A stretch of 64,000 nucleotides of DNA from Candidatus Latescibacterota bacterium (GTDB lineage Bacteria > Latescibacterota > UBA2968 > UBA8231): contig CBDCSU010000005.1 of assembly GCA_965221775.1 (NCBI GenBank), positions 256,001-320,000 on the forward strand, in the 5' to 3' direction. Below the pieces are notes generated by a model. The model was not told the DNA's origin. It saw nothing but the letters and a program-made list of their open reading frames with translations, and searched no databases. The position numbers and the translations under genes are program-made. Positions 32,829 through 55,133 of the stretch are shown here, piece after piece. Position 1 is the first letter of the stretch. Each line of letters begins with the position of its first letter.

Positions 32829-32846
32829 GGAAGGAGTCTCCTCTTC

Positions 32847-33779: not shown

Positions 33780-33832
33780 TCTAGGCTCCTCCTTGCTGGC
33801 CGCCCGCGTCTCCCGCGGGCCTGGGCGCGACA

Positions 33833-34585: not shown

Positions 34586-34618
34586 CGGCTGTCCGCGGAG
34601 TCCTCTCGGTCAAGGGCC

Positions 34619-35503: not shown

Positions 35504-35730
35504 GCCGGCCGGAGCCGAACTGTGGCGCGGGCAGGTCAAGGTCGGTGTCGGGGAGAGGTTCCAGTCGAGGGGGATGGTGGCGGATCGGTCGCGCGTAAGA
35601 TAGCCCCCCGCCGGAGGCCGGCAACCGGCCCTCGGCCCGCACCGGCCGGACGCTTCAGGCCCGTCCCGCGACGGCTCCGGAGGAGGGGTCCTTGCCCGGC
35701 TGCGGCGCCTCCGTAGGTTCCGTCACACCG

Positions 35731-37215
35731 ATGATTCGACGATCGAGCCTCCCCTTGGCGCTGGCCCTCTGCCTGGCTTGCGGCCCCTCGCGGCAGCCTC
35801 CCGGGGAGACCGACGCCGCAGAGCGGCACCTGGCGGAAGGCCGGTACGGCGAGGCCCTGGCGCTCCTGCGGGAGCAGCTCGCGTCGGGGGATCTCCCTCG
35901 AGTGCACGCCGGCCTCGGGCACGCTCATGCCCGCCTCGGGCGCCTGGACTCCGCCGCCGCCCACTACCAGGCCAGCCTCTCCTTCGATCCGCGGCGGGTG
36001 GAGGTCCAGCACAACCTCGGCGTCGTACTGGCCGACCTCGGGCGCTTCGACGAGGCCGTGGCCGCCCTCGAGCGCGCCGTCGACCTGGACCCCGGATCCG
36101 CGGCCTCCCACCTGACCCTCGGTCTCTTCAGGCGGAAGGTCGGCGACTACGAGCGTGCCGAAGCCGCCTTCCGTGCGGCCGCCGCTGCCGGAGACCCTTC
36201 CGCTCACCGCCACCTCGGCGGACTCTACGTCCGGCTCGGCCGCTACGACGAGGCCGACCGGGAGCTGGAGCAGGCCCTGAAGGCGGATCCCCAGGACGCC
36301 GAGAGCCACCGCCTGTCGGCGGTCTCGATGAGGTCCCGCGGCGACCTGGAGGGGGCCGCGGTCTCCTTCTCCCGGGCGGTGGAGCTGAACCCCCGCGACC
36401 CCGAGGCCCTCTTCGGCCTGGCCAACCTCCTGATCGCCTCGGGCGACGCCGAGGGCGGCAGACAGCTGCTGGAGCGTTTCGAGCGGCTGCGCCAGGGCGC
36501 CGGCGAGGTCGAGCGGCTGCGCCGCCTTCTGGATACGAGCCCCGGGGACCTGGAGGCGCGGATGACCCTCGCCGGGAGGCTCCTGCGGGACGGCCTCGAG
36601 CCGGAGGCGGCGAGACAGTACGAGGCGGTGCTGGCCTACGACCCCGGGCAGGTCGACGCCCGGCTGCGCCTGGGGCGGCTGTACCGCGACCTCGGCGACA
36701 CGCTCCGGGCCCTCCAGGTGCTGTCCGCCGCACCCCTCGAGGACGCGCGCCTGGCCTTCTTCCTCGGCTCCCTGCAACTGATGCGCGGCGACCTGGAGGC
36801 GGGCGCCGCCACCCTCGAGGGCGCCGCGGCCCTGGACCCCGGCCACGGGGAGGTCCTCAACAACCTCGGCAACGTCCGCCTGATGCAGGGGAACCCCGAG
36901 GCGGCGGCCGCCGCCTTCCGCCGCGCCCTCGCCGCCGCCGCGCCCTCGGCGCAGGCCGCCCTCAACCTGGGGACCCTCTGGGTCCGGGCCGGGCGTGAGG
37001 ACAGCGCCGCCGTCTGCTACCGGCTGGCCCTGGGAATCGACCCGGACCTGGCCGCCGCCCATCTCGCCCTCGCCCGCCTGCACGACCGCGGCGGCCGCCG
37101 CGACGAGGCCGCCGCCGCGTACGAGCGTCTGCTCGCGGCCTCGCCGGACCCGGCCCTGCAGGAGGAGGCCCGGGTCTTCCTGCGCCGCTGGAGAGAGCTG
37201 TCCGGCGGCGGCTGA
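35731..37215 (+). CDS. TPR lipoprotein
   Basis: ATG 35731; ALCLAC lipobox; multiple TPRs (HNLGVVLADLGRFDEA, NNLGNV). Confidence 0.88.
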   Translation: MIRRSSLPLALALCLACGPSRQPPGETDAAERHLAEGRYGEALALLREQLASGDLPRVHAGLGHAHARLGRLDSAAAHYQASLSFDPRRVEVQHNLGVVLADLGRFDEAVAALERAVDLDPGSAASHLTLGLFRRKVGDYERAEAAFRAAAAAGDPSAHRHLGGLYVRLGRYDEADRELEQALKADPQDAESHRLSAVSMRSRGDLEGAAVSFSRAVELNPRDPEALFGLANLLIASGDAEGGRQLLERFERLRQGAGEVERLRRLLDTSPGDLEARMTLAGRLLRDGLEPEAARQYEAVLAYDPGQVDARLRLGRLYRDLGDTLRALQVLSAAPLEDARLAFFLGSLQLMRGDLEAGAATLEGAAALDPGHGEVLNNLGNVRLMQGNPEAAAAAFRRALAAAAPSAQAALNLGTLWVRAGREDSAAVCYRLALGIDPDLAAAHLALARLHDRGGRRDEAAAAYERLLAASPDPALQEEARVFLRRWRELSGGG

Positions 37216-37216
37216 C

Positions 37217-38962
37217 GTGACTCCCTGGACCCTCGTGGCCCTGGCTGCCGCCCTGGCGGGCTGCCAGCCGGAGGCGTCCCCCCGGGCCGCCCCGCCCGCG
37301 GCAGGGCCGCCGCCGGCGCGGTTCGCCGTCCGCTTCGTCGACGTGGCCGCCGAGGTCGGCCTCGACGCCCTCCACGTGAACGGCTTCAGCGAGGCGCGGT
37401 TCTTCCCCGAGACCATGGGCGGCGGCGGCCTGTTGTGGGACTACGACCGCGACGGCTGGCTCGACGTGTACCTCGTCAACGGCAGACCCCTCTCCCCGGA
37501 TGCGGACGCGGACGCCCCCCCCGTCGGCAACCGGCTGTTCCGCGGCCTCGGGGACGGCACCTTCGCGGAGGCGACCTCCGCGGCGGGCGTGGGCCACCGG
37601 GGCTACGGCAACGGCTGCGTCGCCGGCGATCTCGACGGCGACGGCGACGACGAACTCTACGTCACCAACTACGGCGGCGACGTGCTCTTCCGGAACGACG
37701 CCGGCGCCTTCCGCGACGTCACCTCCGCCGCCGGCCTCGGAGACCCGGGCTGGGGCACGGGGTGCGCCGTCCTCGACCACGACCTCGACGGCGACCTCGA
37801 CCTCTACGTGGCGCGCTACGTCGACTACGAGCTGGCCGACGCCGGGACGGAGACGGTCCCGTACCTCTCCCGCTCCGAGGGCGCCGGCCCCGGCGGGCCG
37901 AAGGGATACCCCCATCCCGACAACTTCGACGGCCTCGGCGACCTGCTGCTGCGCAACGACGGCGGGCCGGGTCCGGCCTTCACCGACGTGTCGGCCGCCG
38001 CCGGCGTCCATCTGGCCGGCGGCAAGGGCCTGGGCGTGGTCACCGGCGACGTGGACGGCGACGGCTGGACGGACCTGTACGTGGCCAACGACGCGACGCC
38101 GAACTTCCTCTTCATCAATCGCCGGGACGGGACCTTCGAGGAGCGCGGAGCCCTCTCGGGGGTCGCCTACGGCGAGAGCGGCCTGCCGGAGGCGGGCATG
38201 GGGGTCGACGCCGCCGACTACGACGGCGACGGCCGCCTCGACCTCACGGTGACCAACTTCCAGGGCGAGCCGAACAGCCTCTTCCGCAACCAGGGGGACG
38301 GGTCCTACTTCCTGCCCCAGGCTTTCGCCTCGGGCACCGGCGCCGTCACCGTCCCCGCCCTGGCCTTCGGCACCAACTGGGTCGACGTCGACGGCGACGG
38401 CCGCCTCGACCTGTTCGCGGCCAACGGCCACGTCCTCGACAACGTCCGCGCCTTCGACCGGTCGACGACCTACCGCCAGCGCAACTTCCTGTTCCACAAC
38501 CGCGGGCCGGGGGCCTACGGCAACACCCTCTTCGCCGACGTCACCGCCATCGCCGGCCCGGGGCTGGCCCAGGAGCGCGTGAGCCGCGGCTCGGCCGCCG
38601 GCGACCTGGACAACGACGGCGACGCCGACCTTCTGGTGATCAACCTCGGGGACCGGGTGTCGGTGCTGCGCAACGAGGGCGGCAACGGCAACGGCTGGCT
38701 GTCGGTGCGCCTGCGGCGGGCCTCCTGCGGCAGCGGCGAGGGCGCCCGGCTGCGCCTGCACTCGCCGTCGGGGACGCAGTGGCGGGAGGTCAGCAGCGGC
38801 CGCAGCTATCTGTCCCAGAGCGATCCCCGGGTGCTCTTCGGCCTCGGACCGGACAGCCGGGTGGACAGCCTGGAGGTCTGGTGGCCGGGCGGGGCCCGCG
38901 AGGTCTACCGGGACCTGGAGGCGGGCCGGTTCCTCGACCTGGTCGAGGGCGGGGCCCCCTGA
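37217..38962 (+). CDS. CRTAC1-family FG-GAP/ASPIC-UnbV lipoprotein
   Basis: GTG 37217; LAGC lipobox; DYDRDGWLD and related repeats; SYLSQSDPRVLFGLG, VWWPGG. Confidence 0.9.
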   Translation: MTPWTLVALAAALAGCQPEASPRAAPPAAGPPPARFAVRFVDVAAEVGLDALHVNGFSEARFFPETMGGGGLLWDYDRDGWLDVYLVNGRPLSPDADADAPPVGNRLFRGLGDGTFAEATSAAGVGHRGYGNGCVAGDLDGDGDDELYVTNYGGDVLFRNDAGAFRDVTSAAGLGDPGWGTGCAVLDHDLDGDLDLYVARYVDYELADAGTETVPYLSRSEGAGPGGPKGYPHPDNFDGLGDLLLRNDGGPGPAFTDVSAAAGVHLAGGKGLGVVTGDVDGDGWTDLYVANDATPNFLFINRRDGTFEERGALSGVAYGESGLPEAGMGVDAADYDGDGRLDLTVTNFQGEPNSLFRNQGDGSYFLPQAFASGTGAVTVPALAFGTNWVDVDGDGRLDLFAANGHVLDNVRAFDRSTTYRQRNFLFHNRGPGAYGNTLFADVTAIAGPGLAQERVSRGSAAGDLDNDGDADLLVINLGDRVSVLRNEGGNGNGWLSVRLRRASCGSGEGARLRLHSPSGTQWREVSSGRSYLSQSDPRVLFGLGPDSRVDSLEVWWPGGAREVYRDLEAGRFLDLVEGGAP

Positions 38963-38971
38963 AGCCTCCCG

Positions 38972-41608
38972 CTACGGCTCTATGCCCGCGTAGATGGTGA
39001 TGAAGCCCCGCGTCCGGGTCTTCACCGGCTCGAAGCGAAGGTCGCGGCGGCTGACCTCGAAACCGAGGGTGGTCGTCAGCAGGTAGCCCTGGTAGTCGGA
39101 GAGGTTCATGATCTGCACCGTCGTCGTCAGCCCCCGGTAGGAGGGGCTGGCCCCTGGGGGCACCGGGTCCCGCAGCTGGCTGAAGACCTCGTACTCCACG
39201 CCCCCTTCGACGAAGCTCTTCTGCATGATCGGGTGGCGCAGGACGATCATGAAGAGCTCGGTCAGCTCCTGGCGGCGCGCCTCTTCCCGCGCCACCGGGG
39301 CCGAGCGCGACCACTCGCTCTTCCACCGGGGGGTGATGAGCGTCGACCCGAGGCTCCAGCTGTAGTGGGCCTTGTTGATCATCCCGAGGAACCAGGACGA
39401 CCGGCGCTGGCCCCGCAGCTCCAGGTCGAGGGCGTCGTCGACCTGCCGCCACCAGGTCCACTTCACCTTGTTGTCCAGGGAGATACCGCCTCTCCGGTGC
39501 TGCCAGCCCGCCCAGGTGGTGTTCACCCACGTGTCCTGCGCCGCCAGCGGGTCGAGAACGGGGAAGAGGTCCCCCCGGGCGTTGGGCAGCTGCACCCACT
39601 GCAGCAGGTCGTCGCGGATCGTGTCCCTCACCCTGCGCAGGTCCTGGAAGAGACGCAGGCGGCCCCGGGCGGCGGTGTTCCAGTCGACGGCGACCTGTCC
39701 GTAGTGGGCCCGGTTGTGGCGGTCGTCGGAGATCTGCTCCACATCCATGCGGCCCAGGGTGAGGCGCACGTCGGGCCCGAGGTGGAAACCGCCGTAGAGG
39801 TTGAAGCCCTGCTGGTCGCGCCGGTAGGGGAAGTCGGGCCGCTCGTCGTTCTCGAAGCGGTCCACCGTGCCGTTGTGGTTGGCGTCGACGCCGTAGAGGT
39901 ACGCCGGGCGGTCGGCGAAGTAGCGCAGGAAGGGCTCCTCCCAGTCGGGGAGCAGGTTCTGGCGCTCCTCGTTGTCGTTCTGGTTGAAGTCCCAGATGCG
40001 GTCGTTGTTCTCGTCGAGCCCCGGGAAGACGTCCTCGTCCCCCGCGCTCGAGCCCTTGCGGCGCCAGTCCGGAGCCCTGTCGTAGTCGTCGTTGTCCTCG
40101 ACGAACTCGTAGATCTCGAAGACGTTGTCGTAGTCCGGCACCGAGGTCTCCTTCTCCACCGTGGCGAAGGAGGTCGAGTACCCCGGGTCCATGCCGAAGG
40201 CCTCGAGGAGGCCGAACCACGGGTAGTCCTTGCGGGAGACGTTGAGCAGCCACCCCAGGGACCGGTCCCGGGCGGTCTCGTGGCGCTCCCGGTGCGGGTT
40301 GGGGTACTTGCGGTAGCGGTGGTTGAGGTTGACCTCGAGGTAGGCGTCGAGGCCGTGGAGGTCCGTCGTCTGCACCGTGAAGCCGGCGATCTGGTTGCCC
40401 GTGGGCATGCCGTAGTCGAAGCGCAGGACGCGCTGGTTGGAGCCGTCCCTGACGTTGCCCCGGGCCCTGGCGAGGGGGAGGAAGACGACGACGCCGTCGG
40501 CGTTGACCTGGCGGTCGGAGGCGATGTCGATGCGGTAGTCGTTGGCCACCACCAGCTCGACCTCGACGCGCTCGATCTCCGTCGGGTCGGGCCCGGCGTA
40601 GGTGCGGTCGCCGAAGTCGTAGGTGACGACGATCTCGTCGCCGTCGGCCGCCAGGAACCCGGCCCGCTGCAGGCCGCCCTCCACGAGGGGGCGGAAGCCG
40701 ATCTCGGAGGCGCGGACGGTGCCGCCGTCGAAGTCGTGGATGCGCAGGTCCGAGGAGAACAGGGCGCCGCCCGAGCCGTCCCCGGGGGAGTCGTCGGAGA
40801 TGCGCACCTGGATGCGGCCGACGGTGCGGAAGTTCTGGCCCTCCGAGAGCACGCCGGAGATGATGTCGCTGCCGAAGCCGTCGAGCTGGGTCACCGAGTG
40901 GTGGGCGTTGACGTAGGTGCCGCCCACGACCAGGAAGTCGCCGATCTGGGACTCCATCCGGCCCCCGAAGAGGTTGGTGTTGCTGGTGCGACCCTCCGGC
41001 AGGAACGAGGGCGAGTTGGGCTCGTTGATGCGCGACAGGAGGAGGGTGACGGCGTGCTTGTCGGAGGCGAAGTCCCACTGCAGGCCGTTGAACTCCGGCT
41101 TGCTGAAGGTCATCGGCGTCAAGGTGGTGCGGATGCGGTTGCCCACGGTGACCGCCAGGTGGTACTGCCCCTTGTGGTCGGAGGCCACGGCGAGGCTCGA
41201 GAACCAGCCGCTGAAGCGTCCCGTCTTCTCCAGCACGCTGCCGAAGGGCACCGAGTTCTGCTGGCGCCAGTCGTAGACCAGCCAGCCGCGGGTCAGCAGG
41301 TTGCCGTAGGCGTCGTACCAGTAGTCGCCCTCCAGCGACGTGGAGACGTAGCGCTGGTAGTTCTGGCGGGCGTAGTTGGAGTACTGCCACTGCTTCCACT
41401 GGTATTCCGCGTACAGCTCCTGGGGCACGTACCACTTGCGCAGGGCCGGGTCGAGGGCGTCGAAGAGCACCCCCGGCCCCGTGGGCTCGAAGCTGACCCG
41501 GCCGCCGCGCTTGACCGTGCCCAGGCGGGCGCCGTAGTCCTGGGCCCCGGCGGCGGCGGCCAGCAGGAGAATCGTCAGTATCCGCACCATCCCCTTCTCC
41601 CCGCTCAT
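38972..41608 (-). CDS. Large secreted hypothetical protein, putative beta-barrel with acidic Ca-binding-like loop (paralog of 43548..46280)
   Basis: ATG 41608 (or 41590); signal peptide; LRKWY, EDNDDYDRAPDW, PDWEEPFLRY, GVDANHNGTVDRFEND; amphipathic strands at C-terminus. Confidence 0.8.
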   Translation of the reverse strand: MSGEKGMVRILTILLLAAAAGAQDYGARLGTVKRGGRVSFEPTGPGVLFDALDPALRKWYVPQELYAEYQWKQWQYSNYARQNYQRYVSTSLEGDYWYDAYGNLLTRGWLVYDWRQQNSVPFGSVLEKTGRFSGWFSSLAVASDHKGQYHLAVTVGNRIRTTLTPMTFSKPEFNGLQWDFASDKHAVTLLLSRINEPNSPSFLPEGRTSNTNLFGGRMESQIGDFLVVGGTYVNAHHSVTQLDGFGSDIISGVLSEGQNFRTVGRIQVRISDDSPGDGSGGALFSSDLRIHDFDGGTVRASEIGFRPLVEGGLQRAGFLAADGDEIVVTYDFGDRTYAGPDPTEIERVEVELVVANDYRIDIASDRQVNADGVVVFLPLARARGNVRDGSNQRVLRFDYGMPTGNQIAGFTVQTTDLHGLDAYLEVNLNHRYRKYPNPHRERHETARDRSLGWLLNVSRKDYPWFGLLEAFGMDPGYSTSFATVEKETSVPDYDNVFEIYEFVEDNDDYDRAPDWRRKGSSAGDEDVFPGLDENNDRIWDFNQNDNEERQNLLPDWEEPFLRYFADRPAYLYGVDANHNGTVDRFENDERPDFPYRRDQQGFNLYGGFHLGPDVRLTLGRMDVEQISDDRHNRAHYGQVAVDWNTAARGRLRLFQDLRRVRDTIRDDLLQWVQLPNARGDLFPVLDPLAAQDTWVNTTWAGWQHRRGGISLDNKVKWTWWRQVDDALDLELRGQRRSSWFLGMINKAHYSWSLGSTLITPRWKSEWSRSAPVAREEARRQELTELFMIVLRHPIMQKSFVEGGVEYEVFSQLRDPVPPGASPSYRGLTTTVQIMNLSDYQGYLLTTTLGFEVSRRDLRFEPVKTRTRGFITIYAGIEP

Positions 41609-43551
41609 CAGTAGGCCACGGCCAGAACGCCGTGGTGGTCCTCGGCAAAGGCGTCGGCGTCGATCCGCAGCCGCCAGACGTAGGTGCCCGGCGCCAGCGC
41701 GCGGCCGTCGGCGCCGCGGCCGTCCCACAGGTATTCCGAGGGCCCCAGGCCGTGGAGCCCGAGGTCGGCGTGGGCCACGCGGCGGCCGGAGAGATCGAAG
41801 ATCTCGAAGCGCACCGGGGCCCTGTCGGTCAGCTGCAGCAGGTTGAACTGCACCCGCAGTCCGTCGTTGAGGCCGTCTCCGTTGGGCGTCACCACCGGGG
41901 TGGAGAGGGCGATCTGTCCCACGAGGCGGCCGATCTGCTCCTCCGGGATGGCCACGAAGAGGCCGGACAGCTCGTCGTGGTCGCCGGGCCCGAAGTCGGC
42001 GGCGTTGCCGCCCTCGAGGGGCTGGGGCACGGAGGGGTAGCGGCTGTTGATGGCGCGGCCCGAGAACGTGGTCCCGAAGCGGAACACCGGCAGATCGAAG
42101 GTGAACTCGAGGACGTCCCCGGCCCCGGAGATGAGGGGCAGGCCGATGCGGAAGGCGTCGTGCCGCGAGAACAGGACCTCCGCCTCCAGGGCCTCGCCGT
42201 TCAACCGCACCTGGCGCACCCTCTCCATGGGGACCGTCGTGTCCACCTCGAGCTGGTCGAAGCCGAGGACCGCTCCCGCCCGGCCCACGCGCACGGCGTA
42301 GCGGAAGCTGGCCGGCTCCTCGACCTGCGAGAGCCGCGGATAGACCTCGGCCCGCAGGGTGTCGGCGATGGGCGGCCTCAGGTAGGGGAAGGAGATGCTG
42401 TCCACCTGCCGGGTGTCGAAGAGGCGGCCGGCGAACTCCAGCCGGAACTGCACCCAGCGGCGCGGGATCGGGGCGGAGACCAGCGCCCCCGGGGCCGCCG
42501 ACTTCCAGGGGCTCCAGCTGTCGATGTCCTCGACCACCCCGGCGCGGTCCTGGGACTCCAGGCTCCAGTACTCCTCCGGGGTGATCTCGGCGAGGATGGT
42601 GCTCTCGGGATCCGCCGGGTCGGGCACGCGGTGCCGGAAGACCAGCGGCGTGTCGTCGTTGCCGGTGCGCACCCGCACCCTCATCTCGGAGAACTCGGGC
42701 GGCCCGGCGATCTCCTCCACCCAGCGCAGCGGCCCGATGGAGGCCCGGCCCCCGAGATCGATCAGGTCCGAGTAGTAGACCCCTCCATCCAGGTACCCGG
42801 TGCCGTAGACCTCCAGCTCGTCGACCTCGAAGGGGCGCTCGCTCAGGGAGCGCAGCTTCACCTGGCGCACGTAGCGCGGGGCGACATGCACGTCGACGAC
42901 GGGGTCGGTGTTGTTGGTGACCCGCGCCACGAGGATGTCGGGACTGCCGGCGGCGCGGTCCGTCTGCCGCGGGTTGATCCACACCTCGTAGGCGCGCAGG
43001 TAGTCGTCGTGGAAGGGCGTCTGCGGCGTCGCCACGACGGTGTTCCGCGGATAGAAGCGGATGCGCTCGACCCCCACCTGGCGCCCGAAGTCGAGCCACA
43101 CCCAGATCCCGAAGCTGGTCAGGGTCGGCTCGAGGAGGGTCGGCTTGCGCTCGAAGGCCACCGAGTGGTCGCCGTTCACCAGCCCCTGCAGCTGCCGCCG
43201 CACCAGGGCCGAGGGCCGGCCGATGGAGTTCGGCGCCCGGATGCGGCCGCCGCTCTCGAGGACGAGGCCGGCGATGTTGGTCTCGCCGTCGTAGTACCGG
43301 GGGCTGATCCAGCCCGGGCGATGCTCGAACTCGATGTCGGCGCCGGGCGCGTTCCCCGTGTCTAGGACCGCCCGGACGCCGGACCTCACCAGGTGGACGG
43401 GTTCTCCCCGGCCGCCCCCCTCGGCCCAGGAATGGCCGCCGTCGCCGAGGGTGTAGAGGGCGAGCTGGGCCCCGGCGCCGTCGGCGCAGGCCAGGGCCGC
43501 CAGGGCGAGGGCCGCGGCGCCCGCCCGCCGGGTGCGGAGGCGGCGGCTCAC
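41608..43551 (-). CDS. Secreted protein with discoidin-like module and C-terminal TPNGDG/FlgD-Ig domain
   Basis: GTG 43551 (GTGA overlap); WLDFG....ERIRFYPR; TPNGDGLND, IFDLSGRRV, WDGRGADG..LAPGTY. Confidence 0.85.
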   Translation of the reverse strand: MSRRLRTRRAGAAALALAALACADGAGAQLALYTLGDGGHSWAEGGGRGEPVHLVRSGVRAVLDTGNAPGADIEFEHRPGWISPRYYDGETNIAGLVLESGGRIRAPNSIGRPSALVRRQLQGLVNGDHSVAFERKPTLLEPTLTSFGIWVWLDFGRQVGVERIRFYPRNTVVATPQTPFHDDYLRAYEVWINPRQTDRAAGSPDILVARVTNNTDPVVDVHVAPRYVRQVKLRSLSERPFEVDELEVYGTGYLDGGVYYSDLIDLGGRASIGPLRWVEEIAGPPEFSEMRVRVRTGNDDTPLVFRHRVPDPADPESTILAEITPEEYWSLESQDRAGVVEDIDSWSPWKSAAPGALVSAPIPRRWVQFRLEFAGRLFDTRQVDSISFPYLRPPIADTLRAEVYPRLSQVEEPASFRYAVRVGRAGAVLGFDQLEVDTTVPMERVRQVRLNGEALEAEVLFSRHDAFRIGLPLISGAGDVLEFTFDLPVFRFGTTFSGRAINSRYPSVPQPLEGGNAADFGPGDHDELSGLFVAIPEEQIGRLVGQIALSTPVVTPNGDGLNDGLRVQFNLLQLTDRAPVRFEIFDLSGRRVAHADLGLHGLGPSEYLWDGRGADGRALAPGTYVWRLRIDADAFAEDHHGVLAVAY

Positions 43552-46280
43552 TGCAGCCCCGCGTTCATGCTCACGAAGAGCAGCGACGAGCGCTCGGCCG
43601 GTCCCGACTCCGGGTCGCGGTCGCCTACCTGGATGCCGCCGCGCGTGACCAGCTGGTAACCCTGGAAGCCGACCCGGTTGATGACCTGCACGATCAGGGT
43701 CCGGGCGGTGAAGCCGCTGTCGAGCTCCCGGCGCTCGCCCTCCAGCAGCCAGCCCCGGGTCCACTCCAGGCCGAGTTGCAGCTCGGTATCGAAGAGCTGC
43801 TTGCCGTAGCGGGCGTAGTAGTTGACGCTGGTCAGCTCGGAGAGCAGCGGCTGCCGCCACATGAGGAAGAGGGACTCCTCCAGGCTGCGGGCCAGGGGCC
43901 GCCGGGCGTCGTAGGGCCGGTCGGCGCGGTACTCGCTCTTCCAGCGCGGCTCCAGCAGCCCCCGGCCCACCGGGATCGACCACTCGGCGCGGTTGATCAG
44001 GCCCAGGAAACCCGACCTCGTCCGCCTCTCCTCCAGGCGCACCTCCGCCTCGTCCCGGCGCTGCCGGAAGGTCTCCCACTTGAAGCGGTGGAAGAGGCGC
44101 ACCCCCCGTCCCGGCCGCTGATCGAGGTCGGCGTAGAAGGTGTTGCGCCAGGTGTCGCGGGAGGGCAGCAGGTCCCGGTCGTCCTCCATGCGCCCCGTCG
44201 AGCCGCTCGGCTGCACCCACGTCTGCAGGTGATCGGGGATGTCGTCGCGCACCGAGGCGCCGAAGTCGAAGAGGCGCAGACGGGAGCGGCCCAGGCGCCC
44301 GGTCCAGGCGAGCATGGCGTACCACGACTCCGTCCTGCCGTCGCCGGAGATCAGGCGCATGCGCTGGCGGCCGGCCACGAGGCGGGCGTCGGGGGTGACG
44401 AAGAGCTTGCCGTGGAGGTTGAAGCCGCGGTGGTCGCGCCGGTAGGGGTAGTCGGCGTGCAGGTCGTTCTCGAAGGGGTCGGCGGTGCCGTTGTGGTTCA
44501 TGTCGACGCCGAAGAGGAACTCGGGCCGGTCCGACCGGAAGCGCAGGAAGGGCTCCTCGTAGTCGGGAACCAGGTTGCGGTTGTAGTTGAGGGAGACCGC
44601 CACCGGCTCTCCCGGCCGCGCGAAGGCCCCTCCCGGGCGGCGGGTGTTGTTCTGGTTGTAGTCGTAGATGAAGTCGCGGTTGAAGTCGACGCCGGGGAAG
44701 GCGATCCCCCCCGACCCGGTCTGCCACGGCCGCGACCACTCCGGGACGGCGTCGTGGTCGTCGTCGTCGTCGACCAGCTCGTAGAGCATGGGCACGGGGG
44801 CCTTGTACTGGATCAGGCCGTTGCCGAGGGTCAGCCAGTGGCTGGTGCTGTAGGCGTCGTCCATGGAGAACGTCTCCAGGAACAGGCCCCACGGGTAGAG
44901 GTTGTACGCGGCGATGCCGTAGGCGGCCCAGGCGGTGCGCACCATCTCGTGGTGCCGGCTCAGCCGCGGATTGGGATACCTCCGGTGCTGGCGGTTGAGG
45001 ACCGTCTCCCCCTGCACCGACAGACCGTGCCAGTCCACCAGGTCCCAGTCGAAGCCGATCAGCTCGTTGGCCGTGGGCAGGCCGTAGTCGAGGAGCAGGA
45101 CGCGGCCGTTGCTCTCGTCGCGGACGTTGCCCTCCGCCCGCGCGTAGGGGAGGAAGACCGTCTCCGGGTTGCGCAGGCCGTCGGTCTGGAGATTCGTGGC
45201 CAGCTCGATCCGGTAGTCGTTGGCCACGGCCAGCTCCACGGCGGCGGCCGTCACCGCCTTGGGGTCGAGGCCGAGCTCGAACAGGCCTCGCAGGTCGTAC
45301 TCCAGCAGCAGGCGCTCCGACCCGTCCACCACGAGGGCGCCCTCGCGCAGGCGCCCGCCCTCGATCACCGGGAGCAGGCCGAGGTCCCGGCCGCTGATGC
45401 GCACCCCGTTGGTGTCGGTGAAGACGATGTCGTGGCGGAAGACCCGGGCGCCGCCGACCCCGTCGGCCGGCGAGTCGTCCCGGACCTGCACCCAGAGCTT
45501 GTCCGGGGTCCGGTTCTGATTGCTGGTGAGCACGCCGGCCAGCGGGTTGCCGGCCCGGAACTCCGGCTCGGTGTTGGAGTTGTGCAGGTTCACGTAGGTC
45601 AGCCCGAGGCTGCCGGCCGCGAAGGGGGCGTAGCCCAGGCGGCCGCCCATCAGGTGGGTCACGTTCCTGCGGGGGCCGGTGGGCTGGCTCGGCCGGGAGA
45701 GGAGCAGGGTGCTCTCGAGGCGGTCCCTGGCATAGTCGAGGCGCACCCCCTCGAAGCCGGGCTTGCGCAGGGTCAGGGGCGTGAGCTGCACGTCGAGGAC
45801 GCTGCCCACCATGAGGCGGTAGGTCTCCCCGCCCCGCCGGTCCGAGGCGATGGCGAGCCCCTGAAACGCTCCCGGGAATCGAGGCCAGAGGATATCCGAG
45901 CCCTCGCGCGACGGCTGCACCTGCTCCCAGGAGTAGACCAGCCAGCCGCGGCCCAGATGCTCGCCGAAGGAGTCGTACCACTCCTCCCCCGCCAGGAACG
46001 GGTCGAGGTAGCGCAGGTAGCGGTCGCGGGCGTAGTTGGCGCCGGTGTCGTACCAGTGGCTGGCGTAGGTGCCGGCGAGGCTTCGGGAGGCGTACCACTT
46101 GTGCAGGGCCGGAGTCGTGTAGTCCACCTCGAAGCGCGGCGACAGGTCGACCCGGTCCCGGGGCGCCTCGACCCGGGTGTCGTACCTCTGGCCCTCCAGC
46201 GGGAGCGGCACGCCCCCGGCCAGGAGCAGGGCCGCCCACAGGGCCGCACGGGGCCCCCGGCCTGTCGCGGGAGAGGGCAT
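43548..46280 (-). CDS. Large secreted hypothetical protein, putative beta-barrel (paralog of 38972..41608)
   Basis: ATG 46280; signal peptide; LHKWY, ELVDDDDDHD, PDYEEPFLRF, GVDMNHNGTADPFEND, EPRWKSE. Confidence 0.8.
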   Translation of the reverse strand: MPSPATGRGPRAALWAALLLAGGVPLPLEGQRYDTRVEAPRDRVDLSPRFEVDYTTPALHKWYASRSLAGTYASHWYDTGANYARDRYLRYLDPFLAGEEWYDSFGEHLGRGWLVYSWEQVQPSREGSDILWPRFPGAFQGLAIASDRRGGETYRLMVGSVLDVQLTPLTLRKPGFEGVRLDYARDRLESTLLLSRPSQPTGPRRNVTHLMGGRLGYAPFAAGSLGLTYVNLHNSNTEPEFRAGNPLAGVLTSNQNRTPDKLWVQVRDDSPADGVGGARVFRHDIVFTDTNGVRISGRDLGLLPVIEGGRLREGALVVDGSERLLLEYDLRGLFELGLDPKAVTAAAVELAVANDYRIELATNLQTDGLRNPETVFLPYARAEGNVRDESNGRVLLLDYGLPTANELIGFDWDLVDWHGLSVQGETVLNRQHRRYPNPRLSRHHEMVRTAWAAYGIAAYNLYPWGLFLETFSMDDAYSTSHWLTLGNGLIQYKAPVPMLYELVDDDDDHDAVPEWSRPWQTGSGGIAFPGVDFNRDFIYDYNQNNTRRPGGAFARPGEPVAVSLNYNRNLVPDYEEPFLRFRSDRPEFLFGVDMNHNGTADPFENDLHADYPYRRDHRGFNLHGKLFVTPDARLVAGRQRMRLISGDGRTESWYAMLAWTGRLGRSRLRLFDFGASVRDDIPDHLQTWVQPSGSTGRMEDDRDLLPSRDTWRNTFYADLDQRPGRGVRLFHRFKWETFRQRRDEAEVRLEERRTRSGFLGLINRAEWSIPVGRGLLEPRWKSEYRADRPYDARRPLARSLEESLFLMWRQPLLSELTSVNYYARYGKQLFDTELQLGLEWTRGWLLEGERRELDSGFTARTLIVQVINRVGFQGYQLVTRGGIQVGDRDPESGPAERSSLLFVSMNAGLQ

Positions 46281-48781
46281 CACCAGGCCACGTGCACGAG
46301 GCGGACCCGGCTGGTGCGCCGGCCTCCGGTGTCCACGCCCACCTGGACGCGCGCGGCATAGATGCCGGGCGCCACGAGGGCGCCCGAGTCGTCGCGGCCG
46401 TCCCACGGGAACTCGTGGCGGCCGCTGGCCTGGGGCGGCACCCGGGACAGGTCGCGCACGAGCCGGCCGGAGAGGTCGTGGATGGCCACCGTGATCCGCG
46501 GCGGGCCCCGCACCTGGAAGACCTGGAAGGAGAGGACGGCCTCGTCGTTGACGCCGTCGCCGTTGGGGGTCAGCACCGGGGGCGTCACCTCCAGCGGCGC
46601 CAGCAGGCGCCCGGCCTCCAGGTCGGAGACGACCACCAGGGACTGGCTCTCCACCAGGTCGGTGGCGTCTCCCTCGCTGGCGATCTGCAGGATCCCGGGC
46701 TCCGAGGAGCGCGACAGCTCGACCCGGAAGGTGGTGCCGCTGAGGAAGACCTGGGTGCGGATGCGGGCCGCATAGACCGAGCGGCCCGAGGTGACCGGCC
46801 CGGGGAAGCGGACGTCCACGCCTCCCTCCACCGGAGCGGCGGCGGCGGTGGCCAGCAGGTCGACGGCGGTCCCCGTGCGCAGGCCGACCTCGGAGCCGGC
46901 GTGCAGGGAGAGCAGCTCCATGGGCGCGCTCGAGGAGGAGCGGATCCCCAGGCGGTCGAAGCCCGGGTCGCCGACCCGGAAGCGGGGCCGCATGTAGATG
47001 GTGAACTCCTGATCGACGCCCGCGGGGACACCGCTGGTGGGCCAGATCTCGGCCCACACCTGGTCCACCAGGGGCTCGGCGAGACCGATCCGCAGGCCGC
47101 GTATGGCGGCGCGCCTGAGGGGGTTGATGGTCAGCAGACGCACCTGGGCCAACGCGTAACGCCGCGGACTCGGGGAGCGGAAGGGCTCCGGCGACTCGCG
47201 GTAGACCTCGCTCCAGCTGCTCCACTTCTGCCCGGGCACGTAGAGCGTGTCCACGGGGCCCCGGTTCGACTCGCGGGCCCGCTCCCAGCGCTCCTGATCT
47301 ATGGGGAAACCGGCGCCATCGAGGAATCTCAGTTCCTGGCGCAGGTCGTCTCCCGAGCGCGTGCGGATCTCGATGCGGGTCTCCCGCGGCGCCTCCCCCT
47401 CCCACGACAGCGAGCTGAACATGCGCGACCCCGGCAGGGTGATCAGCGGCGAGGTGAGGACCACCTCCGAGACGAAGCCCTCGCCGAAGGCCAGCATCTC
47501 GGCGAGCTGGCCGCTCTCCTGCTCGGTGCCCAGCAGCGCCAGGGCGCGCAGCTGCACGTGGCGCACCTCCTGCAGCGGGAAGGTCTCTTCCAGCTGGTGG
47601 AAGCGGTCGCGGTTCAGGCGCTCCTCCAGCTCGTTCCAGACACGCTCCCCGTTGGGGTCGATGGAGCCGTCCGAGAGCAGCACCTGGTAGGCCCGCAGCG
47701 GCTGCTGCGGAGTGACCAGGCGAACCCGGTCGAGCCAGTACTTGGCGCCCAGGTCGACCTCCAGCTGGTTGCGCCGCCGCACCTGGTCGTACGGCTTGAT
47801 GGGGAACCACGTGTAGAAGAACCCGTCCGTCGAGATGGTGCGCACCAGGTCGCCGATGGCCCGGGTCTGAAGGTTGATGAGCCGCTGCGTGTTGAGGACC
47901 ACGTTCTCCCCGGGGGTGATCACCTCCAGCTCCGCCACCCGGGGGCGCTCGCGGCGATAGTGGCGCACCGGGCCCCGCTCGGCCTCGGGCAGGGCCCTCC
48001 AGGTCGCCTCGGAGACGGGGATCTCCCGGCCCGCCACCGTGGTGCGGTGGTATGCCACCGCGCCCCGGTCCTCCGGCGGCAGGGCCGCGTGCTCCTCCGG
48101 CGAGACCTGGCGGCCGCGGTCCCCGTCCGAGCCGAGGGCCTCCAGACGGACGAACTGCACCACCTGGCCCGTCACCCCCGGAGGCAGGGGGCGCTGCGGC
48201 TTGATGTCGAAGACGAAGTACCGCTCGTCCTTGTTGGGCAGGACCACCTGGCCGCCGCGGAAGTAGTCTAGGTCGTCGTTGAGGCGGCCGAGCCCGTTGG
48301 AGAGGCGCACGCGGAACTTCAGGAACGGGTCGCCCTCGCCTTGGGGCGCGAACCGCACCACCACCTGCTCGGCGATCACGGCGCGGCCGAGGTCGATCTC
48401 GACGAACCAGTCCTCCACGTCGTCGGCCGGGTCCGGCTCCCACCAAGTGAGGGGGTCCCCGTCGTGCACCAGGGAACCCGTCTCGGCGCCGCTGCCGATG
48501 GCGTGGACGCCGCCGGTGACCGTGTCGGAATCGGCGAAGATGGCGATGTACTGGTGGGCATCGAGGGCGGCGTTGCCCCGCCGCTCCAGCCCCCGGGGGG
48601 TCACGGTGCCGTCCGGCCCCAGCTCCAGGGCGCCCTCGGGCAGCTGCCACGCCGACCAGTGAGCGGGGCGGTCGACGACGACCTCCGTCGGCCTCAGCCG
48701 GTAGCCCTCCTGGGGGGCGGCGGCGGTGCCGAGGAGCACGAGAGCGGCCCCGAGCCAGCCGGGCGGGCGGGAACGGACCAT
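46280..48781 (-). CDS. Secreted protein with two discoidin-like modules and C-terminal TPNGDG/FlgD-Ig domain
   Basis: DGDPLTWW, EIDLGR, EVDLGAKYWLDRVRL; TPNGDGVND, WDGRDDSG..VAPGIY. Confidence 0.85.
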   Translation of the reverse strand: MVRSRPPGWLGAALVLLGTAAAPQEGYRLRPTEVVVDRPAHWSAWQLPEGALELGPDGTVTPRGLERRGNAALDAHQYIAIFADSDTVTGGVHAIGSGAETGSLVHDGDPLTWWEPDPADDVEDWFVEIDLGRAVIAEQVVVRFAPQGEGDPFLKFRVRLSNGLGRLNDDLDYFRGGQVVLPNKDERYFVFDIKPQRPLPPGVTGQVVQFVRLEALGSDGDRGRQVSPEEHAALPPEDRGAVAYHRTTVAGREIPVSEATWRALPEAERGPVRHYRRERPRVAELEVITPGENVVLNTQRLINLQTRAIGDLVRTISTDGFFYTWFPIKPYDQVRRRNQLEVDLGAKYWLDRVRLVTPQQPLRAYQVLLSDGSIDPNGERVWNELEERLNRDRFHQLEETFPLQEVRHVQLRALALLGTEQESGQLAEMLAFGEGFVSEVVLTSPLITLPGSRMFSSLSWEGEAPRETRIEIRTRSGDDLRQELRFLDGAGFPIDQERWERARESNRGPVDTLYVPGQKWSSWSEVYRESPEPFRSPSPRRYALAQVRLLTINPLRRAAIRGLRIGLAEPLVDQVWAEIWPTSGVPAGVDQEFTIYMRPRFRVGDPGFDRLGIRSSSSAPMELLSLHAGSEVGLRTGTAVDLLATAAAAPVEGGVDVRFPGPVTSGRSVYAARIRTQVFLSGTTFRVELSRSSEPGILQIASEGDATDLVESQSLVVVSDLEAGRLLAPLEVTPPVLTPNGDGVNDEAVLSFQVFQVRGPPRITVAIHDLSGRLVRDLSRVPPQASGRHEFPWDGRDDSGALVAPGIYAARVQVGVDTGGRRTSRVRLVHVAW

Positions 48782-50593
48782 TCAGTAGGCCAGTTCCACG
48801 ACGCCCCGGCGCCGGCCGGTGCCGCCGTCGGCATGGACGCGCAGCTCGTAGAGGTAGAGGCCGGGCGGGACCGGGCGGCCGCTGCCGTCGAGACCGTCCC
48901 AGGCGGCGGTGAGGGTGCCGGCGCCGTGGTCCGCCTCCCAGGCCCGGACCAGGGGGCGGCCGTCGACGGCGAAGATGTCGAGGGTCAGCCGCGCCGGTTC
49001 CATGAGCTTGAGGAGGGTGAAGGTCAGCTCGAGCCGGTCGTTGACGCCGTCGGCGTTGGGGGTCGTCACCGGGCTGGCGGCCCTCAGGTTGGAGATCACG
49101 GACAGGCCTCCCTCTGCCGCCCCGTGGCGCACGACCAGACCGCCTCCGGGCTCGCCGTCGATGTCGGCGGGACGGGCGACCTGGTAGGCCACCCTCGATT
49201 CCCCCTCCTCGGTGCGCCGGTCGAGGGCCTGCACCTCGAACCGCGTGCGCTCGTGGAAGACCGTGGCCGTGAACTCCACCTGCAGGAAGCTGCCGTCCTG
49301 CACCACCCGGCGGGGCAGGTTGACGGTGAAGCCGGTGCCCGGCTCGACCTCGATGAAGGGCAGCACCTCCAGGTCGTCGACGCGGATGCGCGTCACCTCG
49401 CCGATCTCGGCCGCCGTCCTCACCTGCAACTGCCGGAAGCCCGTGTCCCGGTGCGACTCGGAGCCGGTGCGGTCCAGGTGGACCTGAAGGGAGAGGGTGA
49501 AGGGGGTCTCCACCCCGGCCCGCGCCTCCAGGGGCGAGATCTCGGCCGCCAGGTCCCGGGCGACCGGTGGATAGACGTACTCGAACCGCAGTTCCCGCAG
49601 GCCGGCGCCGGGTTCGGTCAGGGTGACGTGGAACTGCAGGTAGCGGTTCAGGGGCGGTGAGCGCACGAGTCCGTCGGTGACCGGCTCCCATGGGCTCCAG
49701 GCCGGGTTGAGCTCGACCGGCCCTCTATCCTCCGGCGGGGCGTTCTCCCAGCCCGCCTTGCTGTACTGGACCACGTCGCCGCCCTGGATCAGGTAGTAGA
49801 GGAGGGGGCTGCGGTCCGGCCCGGTGCGGGTGCGCACCACCACCGGCGCGGTGGAGACATCGCCGCCCTCGTAGAGCACGCGTCCCCACACCGGCTCCGG
49901 ACGCCCGGCCCGCAGCGGCTGGGACTCGAACTCCCCCACGGGGAGCGTGCCGTCCGAGTAGACCTCCAGCTCGGCGATCTCCCAGGCGCGGTCGACCTGC
50001 GGCTCCAGGGCGAGCACCCGCGCCTCGACGCTGCGGAAGCGTTTGTCCACCACGGGGGAGGTGTTCTCGTTGGGGGCCTTGAAGAACATCACCCCGCGCG
50101 AGTCGGCCAGGGGGTCGAGGAATTGCGCCGCCGACAGGGTGAACTCCTGCAGGAAACGGTTGCGGTTGCCGAAGTCGAGGCGGGGGTGGAACCGGACGCG
50201 GTTGATGCGGAAGGTGGCCCCCAGGTCGACCCACAAGGTGGAGGACCGCACCACCCCCTCCTGCAGGTCGGGATCGAAGAAAGTGGTCGGATCGCCGTCG
50301 AAGAGCGCTTCGCCGCCGGGCAGCGGCGTCAGCCCCCTCTCCGGGTCCGAGTACAGCACCCGTCCGCCGCGCTCGCCGAGGGTGGCGGACAGGTTCGCGT
50401 TGGGCTCCACGTCCCACATCCAGATGCCCTCCCCGGTGACGGCGACGTACCGGGAGGAGGACTCCGCCCCGCGCCAGGAGAGCTCGGGCCCGACGGAGAC
50501 GTAGCGGACCTCGCCGGCCGCCGGGCGGCCGAGCGACAGGAGGGCGGCGGCTACCGCGAGGGGCCGCATCATCGCCGTGCGCGCCGCGGGCAT
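48782..50593 (-). CDS. Secreted protein with discoidin-like module and C-terminal FlgD-Ig domain
   Basis: LFDGDPTTF, WVDLGATFRINRVRFHPR; TPNADGVND, WDGLDGSG..VPPGLY. Confidence 0.85.
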   Translation of the reverse strand: MPAARTAMMRPLAVAAALLSLGRPAAGEVRYVSVGPELSWRGAESSSRYVAVTGEGIWMWDVEPNANLSATLGERGGRVLYSDPERGLTPLPGGEALFDGDPTTFFDPDLQEGVVRSSTLWVDLGATFRINRVRFHPRLDFGNRNRFLQEFTLSAAQFLDPLADSRGVMFFKAPNENTSPVVDKRFRSVEARVLALEPQVDRAWEIAELEVYSDGTLPVGEFESQPLRAGRPEPVWGRVLYEGGDVSTAPVVVRTRTGPDRSPLLYYLIQGGDVVQYSKAGWENAPPEDRGPVELNPAWSPWEPVTDGLVRSPPLNRYLQFHVTLTEPGAGLRELRFEYVYPPVARDLAAEISPLEARAGVETPFTLSLQVHLDRTGSESHRDTGFRQLQVRTAAEIGEVTRIRVDDLEVLPFIEVEPGTGFTVNLPRRVVQDGSFLQVEFTATVFHERTRFEVQALDRRTEEGESRVAYQVARPADIDGEPGGGLVVRHGAAEGGLSVISNLRAASPVTTPNADGVNDRLELTFTLLKLMEPARLTLDIFAVDGRPLVRAWEADHGAGTLTAAWDGLDGSGRPVPPGLYLYELRVHADGGTGRRRGVVELAY

Positions 50594-50594: not shown

Positions 50595-52109
50595 TCAGAA
50601 CGGCGTCCAGTTGGGGTGCAGGTCATCGTACGGACTGTCGGTCACACGTTCCTCGACGCCGCTCTCGACGGAGAGGATGTAGATGTCGTAGCGCGTCTCC
50701 ACGTCGACCAGCCGGGCGAAGGCGATGCGGGTGCCGTCGGGGGACCAGGTCGGCGTCTCCTCCCAGGCCTCGCCGAAGGTCAGCTGCCGGGCGCCGCTGC
50801 CGTCGGCGGCCATGACCCACAGGTGGCTGATGTCGAAATCGTCCGGATCCAGCGCGACATAGGCGATCCAGGCCCCGTCGGGCGACCACGAAGGTTGTCC
50901 GACGAACTGGCCCTCCGGCGAGACGAGCCGCATGCCGCCGCCGGCCGGGTCCATGATGGAGATACCGTCGTCGCCGTCGTAGGCGATCGACGAGCCGTCG
51001 GGCGACCACGCGGGCGACCGGCCCCACGAGGCCTGGGGCTCATGGGTGAGGCGCTCCACGCCGCTGCCGTCGGCGTTCATGACGAAGACCTGCGGCCCCC
51101 TCCCTCCCCCGCCGCTGCGCTCGAAGACGATGTGCCCTCCGTCGGGCGACCAGGCGGGAGCCTGGTCGTAGGCGTCGTCGCGCGTCAGGTTCACCGGGTT
51201 TCCGCCGTCGGCGTCCATGACGTAGATCTCGAGGTTCCCGTCGCGGATCGAGCTGAAGGCCACCTTCGTCCCGTCCGGCGACCGGGCCGGCTGCTCGCCC
51301 CGGCGGGTGAAGAAGAGGGCCTCCAGGGAGTCGGGGAAGGTGCCGTCGGACTTCGGCAGGCCGGTGAGGGCGTAGGACAGGTTCACCACCTCGCCGGTCT
51401 CCAGGTCCAGGGAGTGCACCTCCAGGTCGCGCAGGTAATCGCCCTGGCGACGCCGGTTCGAGGAGAACAGGAGCTGCGTGGCGTATGCGGATCCGACGGG
51501 CACGACCACCTCGGCGGTGTCCTCCGGCTCCGGCGCGGTGTACTCCACGGTCACGCCGCGATCCCCCAGGGCGGCGAGCCGGTCCTGGGCCGCCTCGGTC
51601 AGCGGGTTGCCGGTGAGATCGACGCTCTGCAGGCTGTCGAGACCCGCCAGCGCCGACACCTCCGTCACCGCGTTGCCGGGCAGGAGCAGCACCCGCAGGC
51701 TCTTCAGCGAGGCCAGGGCGGACAACTCCTCGACCCGGTTGGCCCCCAGGTCGAGGTAGCGCAGCCTCGTCAGTCCCGCCAGCGGCGCCAGGTCGCGGAT
51801 CTCGTTGCCGTACAGATCCAGCACCTCCAGCCGCGTCAGCTGCTCGATGCCGGTCAGGTCGGCGATCCCCCGCTCCTTGGCGGTCAGCGTGACCAGCCCC
51901 GCCGCGCCGCCGGTTTCCGCCGCCGCGGCGGCTTCCTCCACCGCCGTCTGCAGCGCCGGGTCCGCGAAGACCAGGGCGGCACCGTCGGGGCCGACGGGGT
52001 CGGGACCGGGGCCGACGGGCGGGTCGGGCTCGGAGCCGCACCCGGCCAGCCCCAGGACGGCCATCAGGGCCGCGAGCTTCCAGGCCATCGTCGTGTGTGA
52101 TCCGGACAT
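50595..52109 (-). CDS. Lipoprotein with internalin-like LRR + TolB-like (PD40) propeller, copy 3
   Basis: LAGC lipobox; FADPAL cap; LxxLxxLDLxxNxI repeats; WSPDG repeats. Confidence 0.9.
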   Translation of the reverse strand: MSGSHTTMAWKLAALMAVLGLAGCGSEPDPPVGPGPDPVGPDGAALVFADPALQTAVEEAAAAAETGGAAGLVTLTAKERGIADLTGIEQLTRLEVLDLYGNEIRDLAPLAGLTRLRYLDLGANRVEELSALASLKSLRVLLLPGNAVTEVSALAGLDSLQSVDLTGNPLTEAAQDRLAALGDRGVTVEYTAPEPEDTAEVVVPVGSAYATQLLFSSNRRRQGDYLRDLEVHSLDLETGEVVNLSYALTGLPKSDGTFPDSLEALFFTRRGEQPARSPDGTKVAFSSIRDGNLEIYVMDADGGNPVNLTRDDAYDQAPAWSPDGGHIVFERSGGGGRGPQVFVMNADGSGVERLTHEPQASWGRSPAWSPDGSSIAYDGDDGISIMDPAGGGMRLVSPEGQFVGQPSWSPDGAWIAYVALDPDDFDISHLWVMAADGSGARQLTFGEAWEETPTWSPDGTRIAFARLVDVETRYDIYILSVESGVEERVTDSPYDDLHPNWTPF

Positions 52110-55010: not shown

Positions 55011-55133
55011 CCCGGGCCCGGGGCCGACGGGGGGTTCCGGCCCGGATCCGCAGCCCGCCAAGGCCAGGGCGGCCAGGGCCAACCCGCGGCCAGAGACTGT
55101 TGCCGCCAGTTTCCCGAATACGGAAAAGTCCAT
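53619..55133 (-). CDS. Lipoprotein with internalin-like LRR + TolB-like propeller, copy 1
   Basis: ATG 55133; LAGC lipobox; LRR; WSPDG repeats. Confidence 0.88.
   Translation of the reverse strand: MDFSVFGKLAATVSGRGLALAALALAGCGSGPEPPVGPGPGPDGEAGAALVFADSSLQAAVEEAAAAAGGTAVELVSLNAKERGIADLGGIAQLARLEALDLYGNEIRDLSPLAGLKRLRYLDLGSNRVEEVTPLASLKSLRVLLLAGNGVTEVSALAGLDSLQSVELTGNPLSEDAVESQLAELRERGVTVEFAAPDGTEGMGEGEGLAALGELPILFASSRRTGLRTDLEVYSLDLKTGEVVSLSDGLAAAPLADPDSVSLQRRRQGEDPAQSPDGMWIAFTSYRDGNREIYVMAADGGSPRNLTRHEARDTKPAWSPDGRRIAFVSDRQGEKDIFVMNADGSGVEQLTFSQRPVRASDPAWSPDGSSIAFNQLDGAGLSRIYAIELSSGAVRVLADHGGILWGPSWSPDGRWIAYIEPVDPDESHVWKISADGGEPRRLTSGTFWRGRPTWSPDGARILFSREERPGGSSEDLYAIPAEGGPGEQITDDPGVDQDPCWAPF

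Follow-up and report, generated by a model that had tools for sequence, protein, structure and literature searches.

Analysis of a 64,000-nucleotide (nt) stretch of a Candidatus Latescibacterota bacterium genome (contig CBDCSU010000005.1, positions 256,001 to 320,000; hereafter the window) pointed to a minus-strand operon in which genes of three secreted proteins (cargo1 to cargo3), with C-terminal tails of the type-B class of type IX secretion systems (T9SS), are interleaved with genes of two paralogous proteins, X1 and X2, predicted to be giant outer-membrane β-barrels. The reading we favour, to which we assign an even chance, is that X is a dedicated outer-membrane partner of type-B cargos, a functional counterpart of the PorP/SprF carriers though unrelated to them. 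An initial annotation of the window had already suggested a cargo plus dedicated-barrel system with an undescribed family of ~900 amino acids (aa), and the barrel model of X, the lack of a family match and the adjacency of tail and X genes support this suggestion. The current view is that type-B cargos rely on small PorP/SprF carriers, and work on the system has been almost solely in Bacteroidota; here tails of the same class regularly go together with a barrel that is unrelated and much larger, in two little-studied, environmentally abundant phyla. If X is a carrier, tail recognition arose at least twice, on different scaffolds, and if X is a pore, it would represent a new secretion route. 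Either way, hundreds of outer-membrane proteins annotated as hypothetical are given a testable function, suggesting how uncultured Latescibacterota place binding proteins on the cell surface. A literature search found no description of such a pairing of tail genes and giant barrels, and no paper combining Latescibacter with T9SS.

The G+C content of the window is about 70% (about 64-76%), high enough for long spurious open reading frames (ORFs) to be common, and genes were called from third-position GC and the frame plot. Eight tightly packed minus-strand genes, running from 55133 to 38972 (window coordinates), form one operon, which opens with three lipoprotein genes, H (53619-55133, 504 aa), G (52111-53616, 501 aa) and F (50595-52109, 504 aa), followed by cargo1 (48782-50593), cargo2 (46280-48781, 833 aa), X1 (43548-46280, 910 aa), cargo3 (41608-43551, 647 aa) and X2 (38972-41608, 878 aa). 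The ORF of cargo1 extends to 50626 (614 aa), with an ATG at 50593 located 1 nt past the upstream stop, and an alternative start of X2 lies at 41590. The junctions from H to X2, as read from the sequence, are TGACCATG between H and G, TGAGATG on both sides of gene F, and then TGAATG, GTGATG, GTGA and TGATG, so that the spacing within the operon lies between a gap of 2 nt and an overlap of 4 nt; the last four junctions, from cargo1 to X2, have either a 0 nt gap or an overlap of 1-4 nt. The order cargo, cargo, X, cargo, X over 38972-50593, as given in the initial annotation, was exact according to our gene calls, and the proposed translational coupling of these five genes agrees with the junctions TGAATG, GTGATG, GTGA and TGATG. 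The five-gene array is, however, only part of the unit, which starts three genes earlier with the lipoprotein genes (50595-55133); these had been overlooked, as had conserved genes downstream.

X1 and X2 align collinearly over their full length with 329 of 878 residues identical (37%, E 4e-172). Searches of X1, X2 and 54 X-family members against Pfam and NCBIfam gave nothing above threshold, and X had no match among PDB sequences, for which an X-family profile yielded nothing beyond a chance hit to a restriction-enzyme subunit (E 0.021). Among 1.84 billion protein representatives searched, 771 at 50% identity reached E ≤ 0.001, including 211 with E ≤ 1e-30, while 1127 of the 8000 candidates scored in 90%-identity clusters reached E ≤ 0.001. 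All source names seen for these relatives were 'hypothetical protein', from Latescibacteria/-ota, Gemmatimonadetes/-ota and Handelsmanbacteria, and the protein atlas yielded only clusters without names, plus DUF6029 as a lead at 0.89. No fused forms of X, including cargo-X fusions, were found among proteins of 1538-4390 aa, which is weak evidence. X1 and X2 contain no cysteine, and in 32 of the 54 family members no cysteine occurs beyond residue 30. Nine of the 54 members weakly match the Pfam family SlpA_C (PF21620; 12-22 bits versus a cutoff of 35), always at profile positions ~232-308 and at a homologous position of the protein; neither X1 nor X2 matched SlpA_C or the SLH domain. An internal duplication of X into two halves of 13/14 strands was considered and rejected, given an hhalign probability of 0.2% between the N-terminal and C-terminal halves.

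Structural modelling of X2 with AlphaFold2, using a 54-sequence alignment, gave a model consisting almost wholly of long β-strands (predicted local distance difference test (pLDDT) 83.5, predicted template modelling (pTM) score 0.80). Counted on the DSSP line rather than on three-dimensional coordinates, the model has 26 strands, 13 on either side of an acidic stretch (residues 474-598), and in the C-terminal half DSSP shows turns of 2-5 residues alternating with longer loops. Hydrophobicity alternation in the predicted strands exceeded that of 496 of 500 within-strand shuffles, the remaining 4 of 500 reaching the observed value. Foldseek matched X2 to outer-membrane barrels only, and its 42 matches at E ≤ 0.001 were led by giant ones: MtrB ranked first (6r2q_B, E 5.4e-07), three SlpA structures took ranks 2-4, and many LptD structures followed, then ushers (FimD/PapC), SprA and porins. 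The matches to MtrB, SlpA and LptD had a probability of 1.00 with query-relative template modelling scores (TM-scores) of only 0.17-0.29; therefore, X appears to share the barrel fold class without having a close solved relative. Taken together, these analyses predict that X is an outer-membrane barrel of ~26 strands. Of the barrels with a name, Deinococcus SlpA comes closest, as judged from the weak SlpA_C matches combined with the Foldseek ranks, though X falls far short of belonging to that family.

The acidic loop of X2 (residues 502-598, window 39815-40105, minus strand) is composed of D, E and N to 38% and carries D.N.N-type motifs resembling calcium sites; the acidic stretch also holds the most highly conserved columns of the X family, including invariant D/N/G columns. 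As 13 strands can be counted back from a periplasmic C-terminus in the model, the loop would face the outside of the cell, and it may bind calcium. The conserved N-terminal segment (residues 19-89) was poorly modelled. An aromatic-rich region directly after the signal peptide (residues 44-90, window about 41339-41479) is near-invariant (W59, Y60, N78, Y79 and Y84, among others) with a pLDDT below 50; it may act as a plug or as a docking peptide in the periplasm. The features of X first noted from the letters of the window, namely two collinear paralogues with amphipathic strands and an acidic, DxNxNG-rich loop, are in accordance with the full-length alignment at 37% identity, the shuffle test (496/500) and the composition and motifs of residues 502-598, respectively. 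As to the two questions raised with them, the AlphaFold2 model and Foldseek both answer in favour of a barrel, and no known family was matched in Pfam, NCBIfam or PDB sequences.

In the alignment of the three cargos, the motifs RxRxG(xD), WSxW, TPN.DG.ND, WDG and PG.Y are invariant and each protein ends with Y or W, in line with the RxRxG and WSxW motifs, TPN[GA]DG tail and terminal aromatic residue that had been described for them; at the N-terminus, their translations show hydrophobic leaders. The tail occupies about the last 100 residues of cargo1 (48785-49084) and residues about 548-647 of cargo3 (41611-41910), and lies at 46283-46594 in cargo2, in all cases on the minus strand. Both CHU_C (PF13585; 30.1 bits) and FlgD_ig (30.4 bits) were matched above the Pfam cutoff of 27 in cargo3, whereas cargo2 exceeded the cutoff for FlgD_ig (39.4 bits) and fell below the cutoff of 27 for CHU_C (17.8 bits), and cargo1 remained under the cutoff of 27 for both (21.4 bits for CHU_C and 19.2 bits for FlgD_ig). 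These matches stop 5-19 residues before the C-termini. PF13585 was present in 110 of 120 cargo3 orthologues among the matches listed, some of which are named 'T9SS type B sorting domain-containing protein' or 'gliding motility-associated C-terminal domain-containing protein' by NCBI, and a profile search of the cargos against PDB sequences found FlgD Ig-like domains only. Judged by sequence, the cargo tail of ~100 residues probably belongs to the T9SS type-B class (CHU_C/FlgD_ig).

Discoidin-like modules had been ascribed to all three cargos. This assignment was upheld in cargo2, the only cargo with an above-cutoff match (F5_F8_type_C_2, 30.8 versus a cutoff of 27.8), whereas the match in cargo1 is weak and no Pfam match to discoidin (F5/8 type C) was obtained for cargo3. 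The AlphaFold2 model of cargo3 (pLDDT 82.2, pTM 0.70) displays a chain of β-sandwiches, a low-confidence linker (residues 517-540) and then the tail; cargo1 is likewise a secreted β-sandwich protein. Foldseek matched cargo3 to the FN3 array of ScpA (the C5a peptidase of streptococci), to PorU, to galactose oxidase with its discoidin domain, to adhesins and to the S-layer protein 7ptp_A, and no catalytic or enzyme fold stood out in the model or among these matches.

To establish whether X and tail genes are preferentially adjacent, related loci were collected, with one genome per species, using an 18-sequence X alignment and search patterns drawn from the acidic loop. The best 80 of at least 563 confirmed relatives were analysed as 22-kb loci (1.46 Mb in total), in which stop-to-stop ORFs of at least 120 aa were searched with two hidden Markov models (HMMs), one for X and one built from the three tails of the window; a tail gene ending between -60 and +300 nt upstream of X on the same strand was counted as adjacent. 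By the label of the record or metagenome-assembled genome (MAG), which may be unreliable, 44 loci are from Latescibacterota/-bacteria, 27 from Gemmatimonad, 2 from Handelsmanbacteria and 1 from Planctomycetota; one of them, L002, is on a Latescibacterota chromosome with an X2 98% identical to that of the window, and is from the same organism or a close relative. The loci contain 117 X copies, with orthologues of the X1 type among them, and 218 terminal-tail ORFs, all 218 tail matches ending within 12 residues of the ORF end. Nine X copies could not be assessed owing to contig ends. In 96 of the 108 others a tail gene lies directly upstream on the same strand, which answers the question of preferential adjacency in the affirmative, and 7 come right after another X. 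When X copies were grouped by single linkage, the pairing was observed at ≥ 60% identity in 17 of the 20 groups that could be assessed and at ≥ 70% in 35 of 39. It is seen in all recurrent gene orders, which are C-C-X-C-X (that of the window), C-X-C-X-l-C, C-X-C-C, C-C-X-X-C and C-C-X, where C is a cargo gene and l a gene for a leucine-rich repeat (LRR) protein. Several X loci may occur on one chromosome, for instance four on OZ220690.1; another complete Latescibacterota chromosome with X is OZ220089.1, whose X2 is 98% identical to that of the window. Two of the loci, L016 and L020, are from MAGs that bear the label Gemmatimonas phototrophica. The MAG labelled Planctomycetota (L040, JBLHGI010000158.1) carries a propeller lipoprotein gene, a tail gene and X in this order, with an X identity of 51%, and could be either a mis-binned contig or a sign of a wider taxonomic range.

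Based on these results, a model can be put forward in which the operon would build a cell-surface module of three cargos, two giant barrels and three periplasmic lipoproteins. The cargos, laid out as a discoidin-like domain, Ig/FN3-like domains, a flexible linker and the type-B-class tail, would be exported by a T9SS-like machine, and each X would serve the cargo or cargos encoded immediately upstream. By analogy with known carriers, X would accept the tail and anchor the cargo to the cell surface, its conserved acidic loop with calcium-site-like motifs being the putative docking site for the tail, while the displayed cargo domains may bind ligands. Direct binding between X and the tail is likewise proposed by this analogy; when X2 (residues 24-878) and the tail of cargo3 (residues 538-647) were modelled together, each from its own alignment, the score was 0.00 and the prediction uninformative either way.

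The analogy derives from SprB-SprF of Flavobacterium johnsoniae and PG1035-PorP-PorE of Porphyromonas gingivalis. [quoted passage not shown] Like the PorP/SprF systems, the clusters described here have a tail that probably belongs to the CHU_C/TIGR04131 class, a barrel gene directly beside it and several pairs per genome. PorP is bound by PorE, a lipoprotein with TPR and β-propeller domains (PMC9143113), and a propeller-containing lipoprotein is similarly encoded near X, although with LRR and propeller domains and, unlike PorE, with no TPR or OmpA_C match. It is this shared set, the tail class, the cargo-then-barrel order, several pairs per genome and the propeller lipoprotein, that favours X as a PorP/SprF counterpart. 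Unlike PorP/SprF of Bacteroidota, which belong to the FadL class with 14 strands and ~300-350 aa, X has ~880 aa and ~26 strands and is found in Latescibacterota and Gemmatimonadota.

Several observations weigh against this assignment. No match to HMMs of the PorP_SprF, T9SS or FadL classes was obtained with X1, X2 or the 54 family members (members at E ≤ 1), and a relationship of X to the PorV-like protein of the window was rejected (hhalign probability 2.6%), no direct comparison with a true PorP/SprF sequence having been made. As X lacks cysteine, it also lacks the C-tail Cys-x-Cys, located in the periplasm in SprF and its close homologues, that links SprF to GldK according to PMC12635249. 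With the type-B model TIGR04131, cargo3 reached 16.4 bits where the cutoff is 35, while neither cargo1 nor cargo2 gave a match at E ≤ 0.1. Five of the 108 assessable X copies have neither a tail gene nor X upstream, and adjacency across orthologous operons is partly inherited and thus not fully independent evidence. Moreover, with about two tail genes per X (218 versus 117), some cargos must be without their own barrel; a similar situation is found in F. johnsoniae, where one shuttle, Fjoh_1677, is common to three orphan type-B cargos (PMC12618676).

Since X is so large, three other roles, those of a conduit, an uptake channel or a SlpA-like porin, also have to be weighed. X itself might be a translocon or sheath, to which the tail directs the cargo so that it crosses the outer membrane through its own barrel and without T9SS, in a split 'passenger plus barrel' route comparable to two-partner secretion or to MtrB/LptD with a partner in the lumen. 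A barrel of ~26 strands indeed far exceeds the needs of a carrier, the best Foldseek matches (MtrB, LptD, FimD/PapC ushers and SprA) carry protein or polymer, the cargo and X genes are translationally coupled, and the lack of a paper on both Latescibacter and T9SS in the literature searched is also in keeping with this role. MtrB and LptD are both 26-stranded barrels. X resembles MtrB (6r2q_B) and LptD (for example 8h1s_A and 5iv9_A) in DSSP strand count as well as in Foldseek rank, yet TM-scores are 0.17-0.32, identities 6-9% and no sequence relation exists, and the partners are a cytochrome for MtrB and LptE for LptD; with TM-scores of X2 of only 0.17-0.29, the matches mean no more than 'large barrel'. 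Pfam recognised no POTRA or other translocator domain in X, the lack of a cargo-X fusion among longer proteins argues weakly in the same direction, and a PorV/PorQ-like gene and type-A-like tails in the clusters (see below) point to a T9SS-type machine, Gemmatimonadetes being counted among the phyla that may have T9SS in a review (PMC11285876). We consider it unlikely that X is a self-sufficient export and display device for which the SprA translocon is unneeded, which would make it a previously unrecognised route in Latescibacterota and Gemmatimonadota; such a device and the carrier step of T9SS might be related by evolution.

Somewhat less probable still is a nutrient channel, with the tail proteins as surface subunits for glycan capture, which would amount to a TonB-independent analogue of SusC/SusD and would be compatible with anchoring. 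The F5/8 type C (discoidin) modules of the cargos, a weakly CBM9-like protein recurring in 45 of 80 loci, a GH42 β-galactosidase gene 36 nt upstream of the operon and the occurrence of several X loci per genome, as with polysaccharide utilisation loci, would fit such a role, for which DUF6029, a 'TonB-dependent receptor-like barrel' and the nearest named atlas cluster, is a lead only. However, X gave no match to the plug or barrel of TonB-dependent receptors, the GH42 neighbour was found in none of the 80 loci, and regulators, glycoside hydrolases and inner-membrane sugar transporters were not found in seven other clusters. The least probable of the three, and in our judgement a poor candidate, is a giant structural porin or envelope organiser distantly related to SlpA, around which the tail proteins would form a coat, co-regulated without one-to-one binding. 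Deinococcus radiodurans SlpA is likewise a very large outer-membrane barrel (30 strands), three SlpA structures rank directly after MtrB (8ae1_A with a query TM-score of 0.29), the SlpA_C matches of 9 of the 54 members occur at a consistent position, and the S-layer protein 7ptp_A is among the matches of cargo3. On the other hand, the SlpA_C scores are sub-cutoff, X1 and X2 giving none, TM-scores to SlpA are only 0.21-0.29, X has neither an SLH domain nor a coiled-coil tether, and the X-family profile finds no SlpA among PDB sequences. To our knowledge SlpA is not known to pair with tail-bearing cargos, and for a general porin, a position right behind a tail gene in as many as 96 of 108 copies would be unexpected.

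The lipoproteins encoded by F, G and H are paralogues with 60-69% identity to one another (69% between G and F) and an invariant LAGCGS in their alignment. All three have an LAGC lipobox, LRRs and a TolB-like β-propeller; that of H, the first gene of the operon, is of the PD40 type and matches the NCBIfam model propeller_TolB with an E value of 1.8e-51, under the equivalog cutoff. No match to TPR or OmpA_C was found in the three lipoproteins.

Downstream of X2, the window contains a cluster of seven minus-strand genes (26963-35539), the counterparts of genes that follow the X2 orthologue contiguously in locus L017 in the order CBM9-like protein, 250-aa protein, PorV/PorQ-like protein, 1097-aa TPR protein, ExbB, ExbD and DUF4159. 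The first three, all probable accessories, encode a secreted CBM9-like protein of 306 aa (34619-35539; CBM9_1 19.4 bits, under the cutoff, with its orthologue in L013 reaching 24.0 versus a cutoff of 23.4), a likely lipoprotein of 250 aa (33833-34585) and an outer-membrane protein of 328 aa resembling the PorV/PorQ family (32847-33833; NF033709, 85.4 bits versus a cutoff of 90, E 5.3e-24). The 1097-aa TPR protein has YbgF/BamD-type repeats and a weak PorW/SprE match, and the seven-gene set, when the propeller lipoproteins of TolB-like type are added to it, is reminiscent of Tol-Pal or T9SS accessory components. Homologues of the CBM9-like protein occur in 45 of the 80 loci, with 46 of 47 matches on the strand of X and a position immediately downstream of X in 20 of the 111 cases that could be assessed. 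Its C-terminus (window 34619-34678) ends with ...STWGRIKSTFAAPQTLY; a WG.IK motif is found just before the sorting tails of other FCB-group proteins. In the window, X2 and the CBM9-like gene are separated by two plus-strand genes (35692-38962) encoding a TPR protein of 507 aa and an FG-GAP/ASPIC protein of 655 aa. The same pair intervenes in L002, while the CBM9-like gene adjoins X in L009, L012, L013 and L017, and the pair seems to have been inserted into a cluster that was older and longer. Homologues of the FG-GAP/ASPIC protein are also found beside C-X clusters in 16 of the 80 loci.

Neighbouring genes were also scanned in seven other loci (52 plus-strand genes out of 93 called), giving LRR proteins, SurA-like double-parvulin isomerases and discoidin-bearing tail proteins, as well as two proteins with sub-threshold type-A-like tails. 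Thirteen neighbouring tail proteins in these loci reach at least 27 bits for PF13585, and no PorP_SprF match at E ≤ 1e-4 was found among the 52 scanned genes. The SurA-like proteins have two isomerase domains of the parvulin type. Their genes lie between tail genes (L041:15593-17332, L034:15736-17475 and L066:13590-15251) in clusters of the C-X-C-C and C-C-X types, and they may be a dedicated chaperone of the periplasm. The two type-A-like tails belong to an LVIVD-repeat protein and a metallophosphatase (L034:2629-6809), both ending with FlgD_ig and a sub-threshold Por_Secre_tail; they lie upstream of a C-X pair and share its strand, so that these genomes contain both classes of tail.

The GH42 β-galactosidase gene (55169-57259, minus strand) is separated from the operon by an AT-rich spacer. 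Further away on the minus strand, two genes without a family match (9169-11649, 826 aa, and 8026-9144, 372 aa) come next after an ORF of 1844 aa (11669-17203), which unites an M28 peptidase match, a periplasmic domain like that of MacB and a permease domain of the FtsX type.

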